This document shows, piece after piece, positions 1 to 5,689 of a DNA stretch of 5,689 bases; position 1 is the stretch's first letter, and every line of letters starts with the position of its first letter. The stretch spans positions 1 through 5,689 of IMG/VR virus record IMGVR_UViG_2778260996_000001. One strand, written 5' to 3'. Both the position numbers and the translations under genes were made by a program. Below the pieces are notes generated by a model. That model was not told where the DNA came from. It ran no database searches and was given only the letters and a program-made list of their open reading frames with translations. Source of the DNA: a virus (taxonomy: Duplodnaviria; Heunggongvirae; Uroviricota; Caudoviricetes).

Positions 1-501
1 AAAACCTGGTCCCTGACGCATCCGGTGGATGACGCAATTACCCTGCTGACACAGGGCGGCAGACTGACCTGTAAGTTCCGCCTGTCAGGCGCACTGACCA
101 ACAATCAGTTCGGGCTGGGGATTTATCTGTATACGGATGCTCCCGTTCCTGATGGTGTGGCGATGACGGGTACCGGTAATCCGTTCCTGATGTCGTACTT
201 CACTCAGACCACTGACGGCAGAGTGAATCTGATGCATCACAGGAAAGCCGGAAACACGAAGCTGGGGGAGTTCGGCGATTACGGTAACGACTGGCAGACG
301 CTGGAGCTGGTGTTCACCGCCGGCAGTGCCACGGTTACTCCGAAACTGAATGGAGTGGCTGGCCCGGCATTCCAGGTTATAAAAGACAGTCTGACACTGG
401 GACTGAATGCGCTGACGCTGACGGATGTTACAAAAAATGCAGCGTATGGCGTTGAGATAGAAAGTCTGGTGCTGGAGATAAATGCACCGGCATCATCATA
501 A
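1..501 (+). CDS. hypothetical protein, C-terminal portion (gene starts upstream of window); beta-rich, possibly lectin/carbohydrate-binding-like
   Basis: Reading frame 1 is open from nt 1 (KTWSLTHPV...) to the TAA at 499-501, so the GTG at 25 is probably internal. Gly/Thr/Val-rich composition suggests a beta-sandwich; no motif I can assign to a family. It sits immediately upstream of the lysis cassette, the slot where lambdoid prophages carry morons. Confidence 0.55.
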
Positions 502-586
502 AAAGTGAGCCAGTCAAATGGAAGGTATCGTTAAACTCACCGGTAGTGTCAGTGGGTCGTCTGAGACGCCTGCATGAGTTATCAGA

Positions 587-615
587 GCCATCAGTACTTA
601 ACTGGTGGCTTTTTT
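587..615 (+). terminator. intrinsic-terminator-like hairpin upstream of the holin gene (candidate late-operon tR'-type terminator)
   Basis: GCCATCAG (587-594) / 7-nt loop / CTGGTGGC (602-609) forms an 8-bp stem with one G-U pair, followed directly by TTTTTT (610-615). It lies 35 nt upstream of the holin ATG. Confidence 0.45.
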
Positions 616-650
616 ATTGTTGTCAGCTTCCGGATAACGGGAGACGGGGT

Positions 651-866
651 ATGTACCAGATGGAAAAAATCACAACAGGTGTGTCATACACCACGTCAGC
701 GGTGGGGACGGGATACTGGTTACTGCAGCTGCTGGACAAAGTCTCTCCGTCCCAGTGGGTGGCAATCGGTGTGCTGGGGAGTCTGCTGTTTGGCCTGCTG
801 ACGTATCTGACAAACCTTTATTTCAAGATTAAAGAAGATAAGCGCAAGGCTGCGAGAGGTGAATAA
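651..866 (+). CDS. S: class II holin / pinholin, phage 21 S21-like, with dual-start motif
   Basis: ATG at 651 preceded by GGGAGA (639-644) at 6-nt spacing. The 71-aa product [25 protein letters not shown]...[36 protein letters not shown] has two TMDs and a charged C-terminus, and closely resembles S21 / E. coli essD as I recall them. Met1 and Met4 give the antiholin/holin dual start. The GTG-extended ORF from 546 is rejected because it spans the terminator hairpin. Confidence 0.9.
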
Positions 867-1363
867 TGCCTCCATCATTACGAAAAGCCGTTGCTGCTGC
901 TATTGGTGGTGGGGCTGTTGCCATAGCGTCTGTGCTCATCACTGGTCCGAGTGGTGACGATGGCCTGGAAGGTGTCAGCTACATACCATACGAAGATATC
1001 GTTGGCGTATGGACTGTATGTCATGGACACACCGGAAAAGACATCATGCCCGGTAAAACGTATACCGAAGCAGAATGCAAAGCCCTCCTGAATAAAGACC
1101 TTGCCACGGTCGCCAGACAAATTAACCCGTACATCAAAATCGATATACCGGAAACAACGCGCGGCGCTCTTTACTCGTTCGTTTACAACGTGGGCGCTGG
1201 CAATTTCAGAACATCGACGCTTCTTCGCAAAATAAACCAGGGCGATATCAAAGGCGCATGTGATCAGCTACGGCGCTGGACATACGCTGGCGGTAAGCAA
1301 TGGAAAGGGCTGATGACTCGCCGTGAGATTGAGCGTGAAGTCTGTTTGTGGGGGCAACAATGA
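866..1363 (+). CDS. R: SAR endolysin (phage lysozyme, T4-lysozyme-like muramidase), R21-like
   Basis: ATG overlaps the holin stop (TAATG at 864-868). The N-terminus [27 protein letters not shown] is a Gly/Ala-rich signal-anchor-release domain, followed by a lysozyme core ([23 protein letters not shown] ... [21 protein letters not shown]). Near-identical to phage 21 R as recalled. Confidence 0.93.
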
Positions 1364-1797
1364 GCAGAGTAACCGCGATTATCTACGTTCTGGTCATCTG
1401 CCTCATCGTCTGCCTTTCATGGGCTGTTAATCATTACCGTGATAACGCCATCGCCTACAAAGAGCAGCGCGATAAAGCCACATCCATCATCGCTGATATG
1501 CAGAAGCGGCAACGTGATGTAGCAGAACTTGACGCCAGATACACAAAGGAGCTTGCTGATGCTAATGCGACTATCGAAAGTCTCCGTGCTGATGTTTCTG
1601 CTGGGCGTAAGCGCCTGCAAGTCTCCGCCACCTGTGCAAAGTCAACGACCGGAGCCAGCAGCATGGGCGATGGAGAAAGCCCAGGACTTACAGCAGATGC
1701 TGAACTCAATTATTACCGTCTCCGAGGTGGAATCGACAAGATAACCGCGCAGGTTAACTACCTGCAGGAATACATCAGGACGCAGTGCTTAAAATAA
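1360..1797 (+). CDS. Rz: Rz i-spanin (inner-membrane spanin subunit)
   Basis: ATGA overlap with the endolysin stop (1360-1363), GGGG at 1351-1354 as RBS. The product [39 protein letters not shown]... has an N-terminal TMD plus coiled-coil periplasmic region and strongly resembles lambda Rz from memory. The GTG at 1348 in the ORF track is a less likely start. Confidence 0.88.
1559..1744 (+). CDS. Rz1: Rz1 o-spanin (outer-membrane lipoprotein spanin), embedded in Rz in the +1 frame
   Basis: ATG at 1559 preceded by AAGGAG (1546-1551). The product [20 protein letters not shown]|[16 protein letters not shown]... has a signal peptide with lipobox-like VSAC followed by a proline-rich mature segment, the classic Rz1 architecture, and lies wholly inside Rz. 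Confidence 0.8.
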
Positions 1798-1837
1798 TTT
1801 TAATTTCACTGAAATTTAACAAGTGACTTTCAGGAAA

Positions 1838-1864
1838 ATGCCTCGCAGATGCGGGGCATTTTTG
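1838..1864 (+). terminator. rho-independent terminator downstream of Rz/Rz1 (possibly bidirectional)
   Basis: ATGCCTCGC (1838-1846) / AGAT loop / GCGGGGCAT (1851-1859) forms a 9-bp GC-rich stem with one G-U pair, followed by TTTT(G) and preceded by AAAA. Confidence 0.7.
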
Positions 1865-2015
1865 TACCGGTATTTCACCGCGCACCGCAGCGCACAATAA
1901 ACACCGAACCTGACCCTTTGGAATGGGCCTTTGAGGATACCAGTTAGTGCTGGCGAGCCTCGGTGGGCTGGTTTCCTGTGCGGCAAAGGTTCATTTCAAA
2001 GAAGCAGGCAACGCC

Positions 2016-2564
2016 ATGAATGAATTAATTGCGAATCATGACTTCGACTTTCGCCAGTTAGTTACCGCAGCAGAAGGTCAACCGGTAACTGACACCTTCC
2101 AGATTGCCAGGGCATTTGGTAAACGCCATCAGCATGTGATTAGGGCTATTAAATGTTTGAGATGTTCTGAGGAATTCTCGACAACCCATTTTTGGGCCGT
2201 CGAGAAAATCAATGGCTTAGGTATTTTTGACAAGAAACAGATTTACTACCGCATGGACTTTAGTGGCTTCGTTATGCTGGTTATGGGATTTAACGGGGCA
2301 AAAGCCGATGCTGTTAAAGAAGCCTATATCAATGCGTTTAACTGGATGTCAGCAGAACTCCGTAAGTACAGCGAAAGTTATGAAGCAGAACGTAACGCCG
2401 TAATGCTGGAGTACATGAAAGAGAAGGATGTCGCCAGCATGTCAGGCCGTCTGCTCAATCGCTGGGGGAGAACGAAAAAACCTCAATTGCTTGCAAAGCT
2501 GGAACGTCTGGAGAGACAGGGACAGTTTTTATTACCGGGATTCGATAAAGGTATTCAAGCCTGA
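2016..2564 (+). CDS. rha: Rha-family phage regulatory protein (antirepressor-like, Phage_pRha domain)
   Basis: The translation contains the Rha signature ...VTDTFQIARAFGKRHQHVIRAIKCL... and ...FSGFVMLVMGFNGAKADAVKEAYINAF.... ATG at 2016 (MNELIANHDFDF...) is chosen over the upstream GTG at 1947; both are possible starts. The position after the lysis genes matches where rha sits in P22-like genomes. Confidence 0.82.
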   Translation: MNELIANHDFDFRQLVTAAEGQPVTDTFQIARAFGKRHQHVIRAIKCLRCSEEFSTTHFWAVEKINGLGIFDKKQIYYRMDFSGFVMLVMGFNGAKADAVKEAYINAFNWMSAELRKYSESYEAERNAVMLEYMKEKDVASMSGRLLNRWGRTKKPQLLAKLERLERQGQFLLPGFDKGIQA

Positions 2565-2862
2565 CACATTATGCGCTGTATCGTCGCCGTATTCCCGCAT
2601 TAACCATGACCGTAGCCCGACAGGGAGACTCCTCTGCGCGAGTGTGCGGGGATAATCAAAAACGATACACACCGGGGTTTACCGCGTTAACGGAGCGCGG
2701 CGTTGTCCCCTCATGGTCGCTGGTTCGGTGCGATGGTGGAAGAAACCGGACGATGTGTTACCTCGCAAGACCTGTTATGTCATGTGTCTGATTTGTGATT
2801 TAAGTCGGATAATTGTCGTTGCCATTAAGCAGAGGATTGATGGCCGACAGGGTGGCATTGTT

Positions 2863-2879
2863 AGAATAAGACTTATTCT
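2863..2879. promoter_or_regulatory. perfect 8-bp inverted repeat with 1-bp spacer (candidate operator) in the promoter region of the TonB-C lipoprotein gene
   Basis: AGAATAAG-A-CTTATTCT at 2863-2879, about 20 nt upstream of the lipoprotein start. It overlaps a possible -10 (TAGAAT 2862-2867); a weak -35 candidate TTGATG lies at 2837-2842 with a long 19-nt spacer. Confidence 0.35.
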
Positions 2880-2899
2880 TATCTGTGCCGGGAATGAAA

Positions 2900-3226
2900 A
2901 TGAAAAGAAATCTTCCGTTAATTATTTTGTTGTCTTCTCTGGTTATGGGCTGTACGCAACATAAAACAGATATGCCCCGACAGTTGGTTAAGGCATTACC
3001 ACAATATCCGGCCTATGCAGCGGCAAATTATATAAAGGGACGGGTTGATGTGAAGTTTGATATTGGTGCTGATGGTACTGTCACCCGAATTGAGTTTATC
3101 CGTTCAGAGCCGCACCATCTGTTTGATGAGCAGGTTGTAAAGGCGATGGCAAAATGGCGATTTGAGAAGGACAGGCCGCGTAAAGGCGTGAAGAAAACGT
3201 TTATCTTTAGTCCTTCTGCACCCTGA
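2900..3226 (+). CDS. small secreted (probable lipo)protein consisting of a free-standing TonB C-terminal domain
   Basis: ATG at 2900 with GGGA (2890-2893) at 6-nt spacing; ATG 2894 and GTG 2885 are alternatives. Signal peptide MKRNLPLIILLSSLVMG|C with lipobox-like VMGC. The mature part LPQYPAYAAANYIKGRVDVKFDIGADGTVTRIEFIRSEPHHLFDEQVVKAMAKWRFE matches the TonB_C signature (compare E. coli TonB [55 protein letters not shown], from memory). No proline-rich linker or N-terminal ExbBD-coupling TMD is present. Confidence 0.8.
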   Translation: MKRNLPLIILLSSLVMGCTQHKTDMPRQLVKALPQYPAYAAANYIKGRVDVKFDIGADGTVTRIEFIRSEPHHLFDEQVVKAMAKWRFEKDRPRKGVKKTFIFSPSAP

Positions 3227-3357
3227 TTATTTCATCAGAAATTAATTATCACTCTGTTGTTATTCTGTACATTCCGGCTGGGTAAGTCTTGTTCCGCCGG
3301 GTATGAAGATGAAATATTGTTGGAGGACAGTGGGTACCTGCTCCTGTAACCGAACGT

Positions 3358-3558
3358 TCATTTCTCGTTATTTGTCATGCTGGCCGGACGCAGATGCGTT
3401 GCATCTGTTGCCAGCCTTCTCCTGCAGGCTTCAATAACCCACGCTGAAAAGTTACCGGAACCTTTATGTTCAAGGGCGATATTGATCTGTTCAATCATGT
3501 GATTGGGGAAACGGATATTGCGGATTGTGGTTCTGCGGGTCCGGTTTTTCGATGACAT
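3358..3558 (-). CDS. small basic ribbon-helix-helix-like DNA-binding protein (possibly YlcI/YnfO-like prophage protein family; family assignment from memory only)
   Basis: Minus-strand ATG (complement of 3556-3558) preceded by AGAGGA at 6-nt spacing. The 66-aa product has an Arg-rich N-terminus and a predicted beta-strand TIRNIRFP followed by two helices (MIEQINIALEHKG / NFSAWVIEACRRRL), an Arc/MetJ/CopG-like layout. No competing + strand ORF exists in 3227-3599. Confidence 0.65.
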   Translation of the reverse strand: MSSKNRTRRTTIRNIRFPNHMIEQINIALEHKGSGNFSAWVIEACRRRLATDATHLRPASMTNNEK

Positions 3559-3599
3559 TTTCTTTCCTCTGGTGACAAGCTATATGGAGAGGATTTTAC

Positions 3600-3965
3600 A
3601 TGGCTGTGCTTCGTACGTTACCGGGCAGAATCAAAACTCTGAACACCCGGCGGGTGAATGTCCTGAAGGGTGAACAGCGTCGGGTCAGTGGTAGTGCCCG
3701 GGTTTCCCTCAAGCGTCGTATCTGGCTGAGGGATGCCGGACAGTGCTGTCTCTGTGGGCGTGTGGTTGACCTTTGTGACAGTGAACTTGAGCACCGCATT
3801 GCACTTCAGTTCGGTGGTGGTAATGAGGAGACGAATCTCTGGACGCTCTGTACCGAATGCCATCGACAAAAGTCTGCTCGTGAAGCGGCGAGTGGTATGC
3901 CAGACCCGACGCTGCCGGAGGTGTCCGGAGGTAGTGGCAGAGCGGACGACATCATCGGACTGTAA
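3600..3965 (+). CDS. phage-associated HNH endonuclease (terminase-associated type)
   Basis: ATG at 3600 preceded by GGAGAGGA (3586-3593). The product carries an HNH/zinc-finger motif: CCLCG...DSELEHRIALQFGG...NLWTLCTECHRQK. Its position immediately upstream of the terminase small and large subunit genes is typical of HK97-like cos packaging modules. Confidence 0.9.
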   Translation: MAVLRTLPGRIKTLNTRRVNVLKGEQRRVSGSARVSLKRRIWLRDAGQCCLCGRVVDLCDSELEHRIALQFGGGNEETNLWTLCTECHRQKSAREAASGMPDPTLPEVSGGSGRADDIIGL

Positions 3966-4025
3966 CCCGACCCGGGGGGGGTATCATCCGGCGTAAAAAA
4001 AGATCGCTTTGGACACCGCCCCCCC
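3966..4025. other. candidate cos cleavage region: G8 run and C7 run flanking a 34-bp AT-rich segment
   Basis: GGGGGGGG at 3974-3981 and CCCCCCC at 4019-4025, non-coding, between the HNH stop and the GTTAAC repeat cluster. The assignment as cosN-like is inference from position only. Confidence 0.3.
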
Positions 4026-4057
4026 TCTCACGCAGAGAAAAAATTCCCGTTTCAGGG

Positions 4058-4185
4058 CAGTTAACATGTTAACTGGCTGTCCGGGCATTTTTGCGGTTTT
4101 TATCTTTATTATTCAGTTTGTTGTGCGGAAAAAATGTTAACTGGCTTTTTCAGCAAATGTTAACCAGGCAGCAGTTAACATTTGC
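4058..4185. repeat. cluster of five GTTAAC-containing repeats (18-bp perfect palindrome, 13-bp direct repeat, 12-bp inverted repeat): candidate terminase small-subunit binding sites (cosB/R-site-like)
   Basis: CAGTTAACATGTTAACTG (4058-4075) is a perfect palindrome. ATGTTAACTGGCT occurs at 4066-4078 and 4134-4146. GCAAATGTTAAC (4153-4164) and GTTAACATTTGC (4174-4185) are inverted arms with a 9-bp spacer. T-tract-rich bendable DNA lies between them (4085-4135). All of this sits directly upstream of the terS start. Confidence 0.5.
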
Positions 4186-4255
4186 GGCATGAGACGCCGG
4201 GAAAAATGGGCTGAACCATACCCGGCTGAGTGCGTTCTGGACCCGGGAGGAGGCT

Positions 4256-4819
4256 GTGCTGACAACGCAAAAACGAAAATTTGCGCTGGCGCTCATGTCC
4301 GGGAAAAACAAAACAGCGTCAGCCATTGCCGCTGGTTATTCGGCGAAGACCGCCAGGGTTAAAGGCTCGCAGCTGGCAAAAGATCCGGAGGTGCTTGCGT
4401 TTATAGCCCGTAAACAATGCGAGACGGTGGAGGTGGATGAGGTTCCTGTTTACCGGCAGAAAAAATCAGAGCAGGAGGATAAACCCCGTCGCCGTGAGGC
4501 GGCTGCAATACCACAGCCGGACGAAAACAATCCGGAGATGCCTCCGCCCGCGGTGATATCTCATGGTATTGAATATATGGAGGATGGTCTTCCCGATCCG
4601 GTGAAAGCGATGGGGCGTCTTCTGGTGGAGAACATTAATACCGACCCCAGGCTGGCGCTGGATGCGGCTTATAAGCTGGCGCAGTTCACGCACCACAAAA
4701 AAGGGGATGCCGGTAAAAAATCGGCAAAAGGTGACGCCGCGAAAAAAGCGGCTAACCGTTTTGCGGTGCCACCACCACCCCGCCTGGTGGTGAATAATGA
4801 TAATGAGGGCAACGGATGA
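4256..4819 (+). CDS. terS: terminase small subunit (phage Terminase_2/P27-type HTH small subunit)
   Basis: GTG at 4256 directly after GGGAGGAGG (4245-4253). The N-terminus KRKFALALMSGKNKTASAIAAGYSAKTARVKGSQLAKDPEVLAFI matches the small-terminase HTH signature (AGYS.K.A ... L.K.P.V..I). ATGA overlap with the downstream large-subunit gene (4816-4819). Confidence 0.85.
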   Translation: MLTTQKRKFALALMSGKNKTASAIAAGYSAKTARVKGSQLAKDPEVLAFIARKQCETVEVDEVPVYRQKKSEQEDKPRRREAAAIPQPDENNPEMPPPAVISHGIEYMEDGLPDPVKAMGRLLVENINTDPRLALDAAYKLAQFTHHKKGDAGKKSAKGDAAKKAANRFAVPPPPRLVVNNDNEGNG

Positions 4820-5616
4820 TACCTGTGTGGAGCACGGCCTGCCCGGACTGGGCAGAGCGCCTGAAAAAGGGGCTGTCGATTATTCCGGCTCCGATTTATC
4901 CGGAGCAGGCCGCACATGCCCTGGCGATTTTTAAACAACTGCGGATTGTGGATGCACCTGGTAGCCCTACGTTCGGGGAGTCCTGTGCACCGTGGGTGTT
5001 TGACCTGGTGGCGGCCCTGTTTGGCTCCTACGATGCGCAGACCGGTGTACGCCATATCAAGGAAGTTTTTATCCTTATCCCCAAGAAAAACTCGAAGTCC
5101 ACGCTGGCCGCGGGGATCATGATGACTGCACTGTTACTGAACTGGCGGCAGGCGGCGGGTTACACGATTCTGGCCCCGACTGTGGAGGTGGCGGCCAACG
5201 CCTTCAACCCTGCCCGGGATATGGTACGACGTGACGATGATCTGGATGACCTCTGCCAGGTACAGACCCATATCCGGACCATCACCCACCGGGTGACGGA
5301 CACCACCCTGAAGGTGGTGGCAGCCGATCCGAATACGGTGTCCGGTATCAAGTCCGTGGGTACGCTGATTGATGAGTTGTGGCTGTTTGGCAAGCAGTGC
5401 AAGGCGGAGGACATGTTACGTGAAGCCATAGGCGGCCTTGCCTCCCGCCCGGAAGGGTTTGTGGTGTATACGACCACCCAGTCGAATGAACCGCCCGCCG
5501 GGGTGTTCAGACAGAAACTGCAGTACGCCCGGGATGTGCGCGACGGCAAAATTCATGATCCGCACTTTCTGCCGGTGATATTTGAACACCCTCCTGAAAT
5601 GGTGGAAAGCGGGTAA
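4816..5616 (+). CDS. terL: terminase large subunit, N-terminal ATPase domain only; ORF ends prematurely (probably disrupted or pseudogenised)
   Basis: Translationally coupled to terS. Walker A-like P-loop ILIPKKNSKST and Walker B-like VGTLIDELWLFG (compare HK97 TerL GRKNGKS / IIDELHAH, from memory). The ORF stops at 5614-5616 after 266 aa and all three forward frames hit stops by 5665, whereas large terminases are typically over 400 aa with a C-terminal nuclease domain. Confidence 0.8.
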   Translation: MIPVWSTACPDWAERLKKGLSIIPAPIYPEQAAHALAIFKQLRIVDAPGSPTFGESCAPWVFDLVAALFGSYDAQTGVRHIKEVFILIPKKNSKSTLAAGIMMTALLLNWRQAAGYTILAPTVEVAANAFNPARDMVRRDDDLDDLCQVQTHIRTITHRVTDTTLKVVAADPNTVSGIKSVGTLIDELWLFGKQCKAEDMLREAIGGLASRPEGFVVYTTTQSNEPPAGVFRQKLQYARDVRDGKIHDPHFLPVIFEHPPEMVESG

Positions 5617-5689
5617 GCGTCGTCTCAGCACCGTCTGGCAGATCCTGAAATTCCTGAGAGAATAGTGGACACCAAATATGGTGGACGCT

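Follow-up and report, generated by a model that had tools for sequence, protein, structure and literature searches.

The lipoprotein gene and its product

The stretch of DNA analysed here (IMG/VR virus record IMGVR_UViG_2778260996_000001, positions 1 to 5,689; the whole 5,689 nucleotides are referred to as the window) is, according to its open reading frames (ORFs) and profile scans over its full length, the late region of a lambdoid prophage. It contains a gene for a 108-residue protein in which a predicted lipoprotein signal peptide is followed, after a very short tether, by a domain that resembles TonB's C-terminal domain (CTD). We conclude with high confidence that this protein is a prophage-borne member of a family of Enterobacterales lipoproteins of about 110 residues, made up of a lipid-anchored cysteine, a tether of some 8-10 residues and a complete TonB CTD. 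A tentative case can be made that it acts as a decoy in the TonB system. The gene itself comprises the following features:

2900..3226, plus strand: coding sequence of the TonB_C lipoprotein, 108 amino acids, from the ATG at 2900 up to and including the stop codon at 3224-3226
2890-2893, plus strand: GGGA motif resembling a Shine-Dalgarno sequence
2900..2953, plus strand: predicted lipoprotein signal peptide (residues 1-17) plus Cys18 (codon 2951-2953); lipobox match IILLSSLVMGC
2975..3214, plus strand: TonB C-terminal domain (residues 26-105), equivalent to residues 153-231 of E. coli TonB plus one residue

Two other starts are possible for the ORF, ATG 2894 and GTG 2885; the 108-residue form is the one chosen by RefSeq, where the product is named 'TonB family protein'.

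A sequence-only reading of this DNA had proposed a 108-residue protein with a signal peptide and a lipobox, and this proposal was borne out. The N-terminus, MKRNLPLIILLSSLVMG followed directly by C, satisfies the PROSITE-type lipobox rule, and Cys18 is kept in all of the 30 aligned relatives (30/30), down to an identity of 32%. The residue at position +2 is Thr in the window protein and S, T, A or V among the relatives, and is Asp in none of them. With Thr rather than Asp at this position the lipoprotein is predicted to be sorted to the outer membrane. The processing of the signal peptide, the lipidation of the cysteine and the localisation of the protein are likewise inferred from its N-terminal sequence.

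The same reading had seen a complete TonB_C-type domain, and profile searches agree. The Pfam family PF03544 (TonB_C) was matched with E=5.3e-15 and 56.1 bits (cut-off 24.6), and TIGR01352 with 56.5 bits (cut-off 27.1) over positions 1-75 of the 76 in the profile. The alignment with the E. coli TonB CTD, as taken from the PDB sequences, contains zero gaps and 31 identical residues out of 79 (39%). Identity extends to TonB Y163, P164, F180, G186, F202, W213 and F230 (numbered by our own count on the E. coli TonB sequence) and strand beta3 is retained, whereas Y215 is conservatively replaced by Phe, Q160 by Leu and R166 by Tyr. A structure prediction, which had been suggested as a check, gave the same picture. 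The AlphaFold2 model, built on 30 relatives, has a predicted local distance difference test score above 95 over the domain and the alpha/beta fold with a three-stranded sheet that is found in the solved TonB CTDs. Foldseek places it at a root mean square deviation of 1.0-1.1 Å, with TM-scores of 0.91-0.92 (normalised by target length), from TonB in the complexes with BtuB (2GSK_B) and FhuA (2GRX_C), and matches it to 1U07 with E=1e-8. The domain thus has in common with the CTD of E. coli TonB (residues ~150-239; 1U07, 2GSK, 2GRX) the Pfam domain, the fold, the YP motif, the core aromatics and the strand beta3 that pairs with the TonB box.

The protein belongs to the TonB_C domain family, without being TonB proper. 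As had been remarked from the sequence, neither a transmembrane anchor nor a Pro-rich spacer is present in the 108 residues; just seven residues (TQHKTDM) lie between Cys18 and Pro26, the first residue of the TonB-aligned stretch. Lacking both the anchor and the spacer, the protein is not a TonB. The NCBIfam equivalog models for TonB, which have cut-offs of 265-448, give only 50-73 bits, and the match is confined to the C-terminal part. Compared to TonB, the window protein is without the N-terminal anchor (His20 region) and the spacer and hence has no connection to ExbB/ExbD, it is predicted to be anchored at the opposite membrane via its lipidated cysteine, and the last TonB strand (~234-239) is absent. 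The mature protein is basic, with an isoelectric point of 9.8 versus 10.4 for the TonB CTD.

Genomic surroundings and relatives

The gene lies 3' of the genes for the holin, the endolysin, Rz/Rz1 and the Rha-type protein and 5' of ynfO and the genes for the HNH endonuclease, TerS and TerL, which confirms the place between lysis and packaging modules that had been read from the sequence. The neighbouring features are:

25-501: DUF6645 protein
546-866: P21-type holin
866-1363: endolysin
1348-1797: Rz (PF03245, 120 bits)
1529-1744: ORF for a Pro-rich lipoprotein typical of Rz1, in the +1 frame and embedded in Rz
1947-2564: Rha/ORF11CD3 regulator
2751..3403, not stranded: moron cassette comprising the TonB_C gene together with the promoter region in front of it and the 3' end of ynfO; borders set by comparison with phage 2851
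3358-3558, minus strand: YlcI/YnfO (DUF3950) gene, ynfO
3600-3965: HNH endonuclease
4256-4819: TerS
4816 onward: TerL, of which the start lies within the window

A search of the window for RNA genes gave no tRNA and no match to an Rfam family at E<=0.1. A near-consensus antisense site resembling a sigma-70 promoter is located within the TonB_C gene (window 3054..3027, minus strand, TTCACA-16-TATAAT, 11/12); chance alone would yield some 1.8 sites of this kind over the region scanned.

The position of the gene bears on an existing annotation. The protein matches phrog_1267 with E=2e-42, and this PHROG carries the label 'Rz-like spanin', which would make the protein a spanin-like accessory of lysis. 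It is a small lipoprotein, its gene stands beside the lysis cassette and it is co-oriented with the late genes. However, the window already has a complete Rz and an embedded Pro-rich Rz1, and what is encoded 1.1 kb downstream of them is a globular TonB_C domain instead of a short Pro-rich o-spanin; moreover, the chromosomal relatives are found far from any lysis genes. Considering that the window has its own Rz/Rz1 and that the chromosomal relatives are away from lysis genes, the label of PHROG 1267 is probably a position-based annotation transfer, and a function in lysis is so unlikely that we give it hardly any weight.

A comparison with phage 2851 (L005; L numbers denote the loci compared) defined the segment to which the gene belongs. 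That phage matches the window at 2544-2750 and at 3404-5613, with 246 unrelated bp in between. The intervening 653 bp of the window are AT-richer, having a GC content of 43.6%, compared with 50.4% in the left and 54.7% in the right flank, which agrees with the AT-rich segment perceived earlier. The segment is therefore both present or absent between homologous phages and deviating in base composition, so that its earlier designation as a prophage moron holds. Since phage 2851 has the unrelated 246 bp in place of window 2751-3403, the interval that had been proposed (2760-3360) falls close to a real insertion/deletion cassette. Within IMG/VR, 179 viral contigs contain a relative, mostly as near-identical E. 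coli prophage copies. The cassette was present in all 80 of the 80 loci that were fetched, with differing upstream neighbours.

Some further observations concern the borders of the cassette. The Rha/ORF11CD3 gene (window 1947-2564) is absent from 80/80 of the IMG/VR cassette loci (L096-L175), and phage JLK-2012 (L001), the single carrier of the cassette for which the annotation was consulted, has a KilA-N gene in its place. A 180-bp block at 2572-2750 is a constant companion of the cassette, yet occurs in cassette-less phages too. In the 3' end of the minus-strand ynfO, just within the right border at 3403, window 3382-3416 contains an imperfect hairpin of 16 nt with a 3-nt loop (75% complementarity).

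Relatives of the protein were gathered first by searching exhaustively with HMMER and then with a profile. Proteins of about 110 residues with 32-51% identity were recovered from Klebsiella, Raoultella, Salmonella, Serratia, Rahnella, Pantoea, Erwinia, Sodalis and Pseudescherichia. They share the conserved motifs SEPxHLFD and KWRFE, which are distinct from TonB. In a rough neighbour-joining tree (made without bootstrap) the lipoproteins constitute one clade apart from the genuine TonB CTDs, within which phage and chromosomal copies are interleaved: the Serratia prophage copy groups with the chromosomal Serratia copy, that of the Sodalis prophage falls with Erwinia, and the one from the Klebsiella phage joins a Raoultella copy.

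In prophages the gene invariably follows the lysis genes and precedes the terminase. It does so in otherwise unrelated elements, namely the window, phage 21, Perceval, the Klebsiella phage ST13-OXA48phi12.4 and prophages of Rahnella, Sodalis and Serratia montpellierensis, the terminase types of which are quite different. In phage 21 and Perceval the TonB_C gene directly follows bor. Lambda Bor and other morons of the lysis/cos junction have much in common with the gene described here, namely the genomic slot, the small lipoprotein product, the AT-richer independent cassette and, for the window gene as a probable feature, the expression from the prophage. The folds are unrelated, though, and where Bor/Iss is associated with serum resistance, the domain of the window protein suggests the TonB system.

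The chromosomal copies reside at non-prophage loci that are syntenic across species and distant from lysis genes. In Klebsiella and Raoultella they adjoin lacZ-lacI, in Serratia grimesii the copy is found between the gene for an FAA hydrolase and dsbB-nhaB, and in Pantoea and Erwinia the copies adjoin a LysR-epimerase pair. Given the separate lipoprotein clade and the conserved chromosomal loci, the phage gene is best seen as a mobile host lipoprotein gene, which appears to move between chromosomes and the moron slot at the junction of lysis and packaging, rather than as a fragment of tonB; it was probably not cut from tonB by the phage of the window. In one Pantoea metagenome-assembled genome (MAG; L013 4208-6739) the chromosomal homologue lies near a gene for a 200-residue tyrosine recombinase and a gene with a pore-forming colicin domain (PF01024), whereas a related Pantoea contig (L014) has the recombinase gene and not the colicin gene. 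A phase-variable promoter was considered for both Pantoea loci, in which the recombinase gene lies upstream, and rejected, as no flanking inverted repeats were found except for the Fur box described below.

Within E. coli two types of the gene were distinguished. The window type was found in 415 of the 5426 complete genomes, including O157:H7, O145 and O103 strains, and the phage-21 type in 1225/5426, including UTI89; together they occur in up to about 30% of the complete genomes. The phage-21 type has 72% identity in protein to the window type and is carried by phage 21, Perceval (strain LF82), ev017 and several PhiR phages. Within each type nearly all copies are at least 99% identical. Since O157 genomes were first annotated the gene has been called 'partial tonB-like membrane protein', and also 'TonB fragment'. 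Perceval carries, in addition to its TonB_C gene (L004 6004-6330), the sitABCD iron/manganese transporter operon (L015 22393-25842), and both are among its lysogen-expressed morons (PMC9928086).

These numbers allow a captured gene in decay, without current function in this prophage, to be weighed. Besides the annotations as a fragment or a partial gene, such a view has in its favour that frameshifted or truncated copies of the phage-21 type are frequent in E. coli. The proteins P0010, P0012, P0013, P0018, P0019 and P0021 are altered copies of that type, and many such copies, including one cluster of 130 sequences, are without strand beta3; they could reflect decay in some prophages or assembly errors. 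On the other hand, the great bulk of the ~1600 genomes have an undamaged ORF with at least 99% conservation, and the lipobox is kept throughout the family. The ratio of non-synonymous to synonymous substitution rates (dN/dS; Nei-Gojobori, pairwise) between the window copy and that of phage 21 is 0.12, and the protein is therefore under purifying selection. In addition, the homologue of Perceval is transcribed in the LF82 lysogen, at a level 8-fold above the prophage background during growth in LB (PMC9928086, Table 1). We thus consider a functionless remnant very improbable.

Upstream region and candidate Fur box

Three overlapping elements were found in front of the gene, and stronger sites of one kind in front of its relatives:

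2859..2867, plus strand: putative extended -10, TGtTAGAAT, read from the sequence
2863..2879, not stranded: perfect 8-1-8 palindrome AGAATAAG-a-CTTATTCT, from a repeat search (8+8 nt, 100% complementary)
2865..2883, minus strand: degenerate Fur-box-like site GATAAGAATAAGTCTTATT, 13/19, overlapping the -10 and the palindrome and starting 35 bp 5' of the ATG
L011 6965-6989, L024 5922-5946, L013 6965-6983, L016 5966-5990 and L030 5924-5942 (and others): strong Fur boxes (15-17/19) directly 5' of the lipoprotein genes of Sodalis, Serratia, Pantoea, Klebsiella and Raoultella, in prophage and chromosomal copies

A simple scan of the plus strand gave no call for a canonical -35/-10 promoter; the extended -10 was missed because there is no good -35. 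The gene probably has a promoter of its own, of the extended -10 type, and late read-through is likely during lytic growth. The block ATTGT[T/C]AGAATAAGAC is the sole well-conserved stretch just 5' of the start codon when the window type is compared with the phage-21 type.

The palindrome, which had been pointed out before, is intact in 64 of the 69 IMG/VR copies that could be read, though the copies resemble one another too closely for this to prove constraint. As an operator conserved across the E. coli subfamilies it was rejected, its right arm being missing in phage 21 and Perceval. A comparison with the relatives suggests that it can be reinterpreted as the degenerate counterpart of their Fur box. 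More specifically, we scanned 200 bp upstream of each gene with the 19-bp Fur consensus GATAATGATAATCATTATC and made 500 shuffles per region. Matches of 17/19 were obtained for the Sodalis prophage, Serratia grimesii and a Pantoea MAG, of 16/19 for the S. montpellierensis prophage and P. agglomerans, and of 15/19 for Klebsiella and Raoultella, all with 0/500 shuffles reaching the score. Over the full range of 14-17/19 among the relatives, no or hardly any shuffle in 500 attained the value, and their boxes occupy a position relative to the gene that matches that of the window site. The 13/19 of the window site was reached in 12/500 shuffles of its 200-bp upstream region, and the phage-21 type has kept only the left half (ATTGTCAGAATAAGAC), which at 11/19 equals background. 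Overall, a match of at least 14/19 is present at most 120 bp 5' of the start codon in 19 of 28 loci (6-16 kb each), where it is mostly the sole or best such site of the locus. The boxes start 5' of the ATG, at a distance of 25-37 bp for the majority of loci and of 48-79 bp for the copies of Serratia, E. typographi and P. bathycoeliae, and in several loci they overlap a -10-like hexamer. The chromosomal TonB_C lipoproteins of Klebsiella, Raoultella, Serratia, Pantoea and Erwinia, which also bear the name 'TonB family protein', agree with the window protein in length, lipobox and promoter layout, at 32-51% identity, and differ in having Fur boxes of 14-17/19 versus 13/19.

From the strong boxes of the relatives, their TonB_C lipoprotein genes are predicted to be undescribed members of the Fur regulon. 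We infer that the family was ancestrally repressed by Fur and that the operator has decayed, partly in the window and fully in phage 21 and Perceval. With a box that has decayed to 13/19, the regulation of the window copy may be weak or lost. The decay in Perceval fits the expression reported for its gene in LB-grown lysogens (PMC9928086). Other matches of 15-16/19 were seen near cos or 5' of terminase genes in phage 21 (L002 7039-7063), a Klebsiella phage (L003 9601-9625) and a Sodalis prophage (L011 8674-8698); these may be AT-rich cos or IHF-type sites only.

A possible TonB decoy and its alternatives

The architecture of the protein, which agrees fully with the sequence-only reading, suggests a mechanism of the decoy kind put forward there. 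The mature protein would hang from the inner leaflet of the outer membrane, a few nanometres from the periplasmic face of the TonB-dependent transporters, and its short tether would hold the TonB-like domain near the place where the TonB boxes emerge. There the domain would bind the beta-strands of TonB boxes by beta-augmentation on strand beta3, as TonB does, and its targets could be the TonB-dependent transporters themselves or incoming group B colicins and other invaders that bear a TonB box. Since no force can be transmitted without a link to ExbB/ExbD, the lipoprotein would be a competitive antagonist of TonB. For the lysogen the outcome would be that phages of the T1 and phi80 type, group B colicins and some microcins enter less readily by the TonB-dependent route, while the uptake of siderophores and B12 would suffer to some extent.

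Several reports are in line with such a mechanism. FhuA, BtuB and colicin M all have a TonB box that engages TonB through beta-augmentation at strand beta3 and around residue 160 (PMC11658791, PMC9249621, PMC2533080). According to PMC9841981, overexpressed periplasmic TonB inhibits TonB-dependent iron import in E. coli (citing Howard 2001) and TonB-box peptides lower colicin killing and infection by phi80 (citing Tuckman 1992). The engineered periplasmic fragments of Howard et al. (2001, J Bacteriol 183:5885, as cited in PMC9841981) are likewise energy-uncoupled and form a functional precedent for a decoy. They were, however, soluble and overexpressed laboratory constructs, whereas the window protein is natural, predicted to be lipid-anchored and much shorter, and has a putative promoter of its own. 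On the strength of the fold and the inhibition reported for periplasmic TonB we consider the decoy mechanism plausible and testable, with a likelihood somewhat below even. Slightly less likely is the picture of a natural anti-TonB in full, encoded by the prophage gene and the chromosomal relatives alike, in which a tethered, unenergised tip would occupy the TonB box at the periplasmic mouth of every TonB-dependent transporter. It would provide a broad, receptor-independent tolerance to TonB-dependent phages, group B colicins and microcins, ancestrally switched on by Fur during iron starvation, when cells would be open to such parasites.

A decoy would be a variation on a known theme, that of prophage lipoproteins which disable an entry route in the outer membrane. 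The FhuA-inactivating proteins Llp of T5 and Cor of phi80 and N15 are also small phage lipoproteins, with a location and a purpose analogous to those proposed here; Llp is an inner-leaflet lipoprotein of the outer membrane that binds FhuA, according to a preprint (bioRxiv 10.64898/2026.03.26.714494). There is no homology to Llp or Cor in the Pfam and PHROG scans, which gave only TonB_C, TonB_2, phrog_1267 and phrog_34172. In addition, Llp and Cor act on one receptor each, whereas a TonB mimic would act on every TonB box, at the energy step rather than on receptor conformation. The sequence-only reading had known of no characterised exclusion factor of this architecture, and full-text searches of the literature found none. 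Neither did these searches yield a functional study of any family member, the sole mention being of the lysogen-expressed 'TonB fragment' of phage Perceval.

A number of points weigh against a decoy. None of the PADLOC-DB defence models matched the protein at E<=0.01, and no linkage to cor or to a FhuA-type host range was seen, no cor being annotated in Perceval, the one annotation in which it was looked for. The promoter of the gene is itself a predicted one, and a terminator scan found no intrinsic terminator 3' of the gene. Within the domain, the column that aligns with TonB Q160 varies across the family, and R166 is Tyr in the window protein. The Leu at the Q160-aligned position (in residues 18-33, window 2951-3000) matches Q160L, a classical TonB suppressor of TonB-box mutations such as colicin M V6R (PMC2533080); as the column is variable, this may be a coincidence. 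Furthermore, the function appears dispensable in many lysogens, considering that frameshifted and truncated copies are common. Finally, the Fur boxes of the relatives tie the family to the TonB/iron regulon. They strengthen its connection with TonB, yet from the Fur-linked chromosomal relatives we argue that its original role would lie in host iron and TonB physiology, not in phage exclusion as such. A pure inhibitor is awkward in this respect, because the Fur-boxed chromosomal orthologues would be induced at the very moment the cell needs TonB-dependent uptake. The conflict could be resolved if the protein acted on invaders making use of the derepressed transporters, or if the affinity of the domain were such that energised TonB wins.

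The same regulation would equally suit a helper of TonB-dependent uptake, positive or modulatory in effect, which would serve as an iron-acquisition fitness moron. The domain would then dock to or heterodimerise with the C-terminus of TonB, or pre-organise TonB boxes, so that scarce TonB is concentrated at the transporters or the choice of transporter is biased, and the lysogen would gain under iron limitation. The strong Fur boxes 5' of most relatives, chromosomal ones included, would bring about induction together with the uptake machinery, and the sitABCD morons of Perceval concern metal transport as well. Short TonB CTD fragments crystallise as strand-swapped dimers. We know of no precedent, however, for an unenergised TonB CTD that stimulates transport. 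The dimeric crystal forms of the TonB CTD do not exist in vivo (PMC3005593), and the sole effect of free periplasmic TonB reported in the accessible part of PMC9841981 is inhibition. Moreover, in the E. coli phage copies the Fur box is either degenerate (13/19) or lost (11/19). We regard such an accessory as an unlikely explanation, albeit one to be taken seriously.

Alternatively, the TonB_C fold may have been reused for a ligand other than the TonB box, such as another periplasmic or outer-membrane strand, a substrate protein or peptidoglycan, in an envelope role apart from the blocking of TonB. TonB-like CTDs can have partners of a different kind, such as ferredoxin in the case of the FusB CTD (PDB entries 9HI3 and 7ZC8, both among the fold matches of the window protein; PMC13253070). 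The separate clade with its own conserved motifs and the lack of conservation at the Q160-aligned position are also compatible with a different ligand. Yet with so short a tether the domain cannot extend far from the outer membrane, the nearest relatives in sequence and in structure are enterobacterial TonB CTDs in the TonB-box-bound state, and control by Fur suits TonB biology. A ligand other than the TonB box seems to us about as unlikely as the accessory role.

Irrespective of its function, the protein represents an unstudied, Fur-box-associated family of TonB-like lipoproteins that extends over seven genera of the Enterobacterales and is common in E. coli genomes. The gene itself had already been annotated; as far as we could find, the association with Fur boxes and the chromosomal branch of the family have not been described before. 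Should the decoy mechanism be true, the lipoprotein would be the first natural inhibitor of the interaction between TonB and its transporters, and would represent a new class of factors for superinfection exclusion or bacteriocin tolerance, which hits the shared energy-coupling step rather than a single receptor. Prophages would then shield their lysogens, among which O157:H7, O145, O103 and the uropathogenic E. coli strain UTI89, in a generic way from TonB-dependent phages, colicins and microcins. The likely trade-off would be a lower uptake of iron and B12, which would bear on competition in the gut, on phage therapy and on the use of siderophore-antibiotic conjugates.

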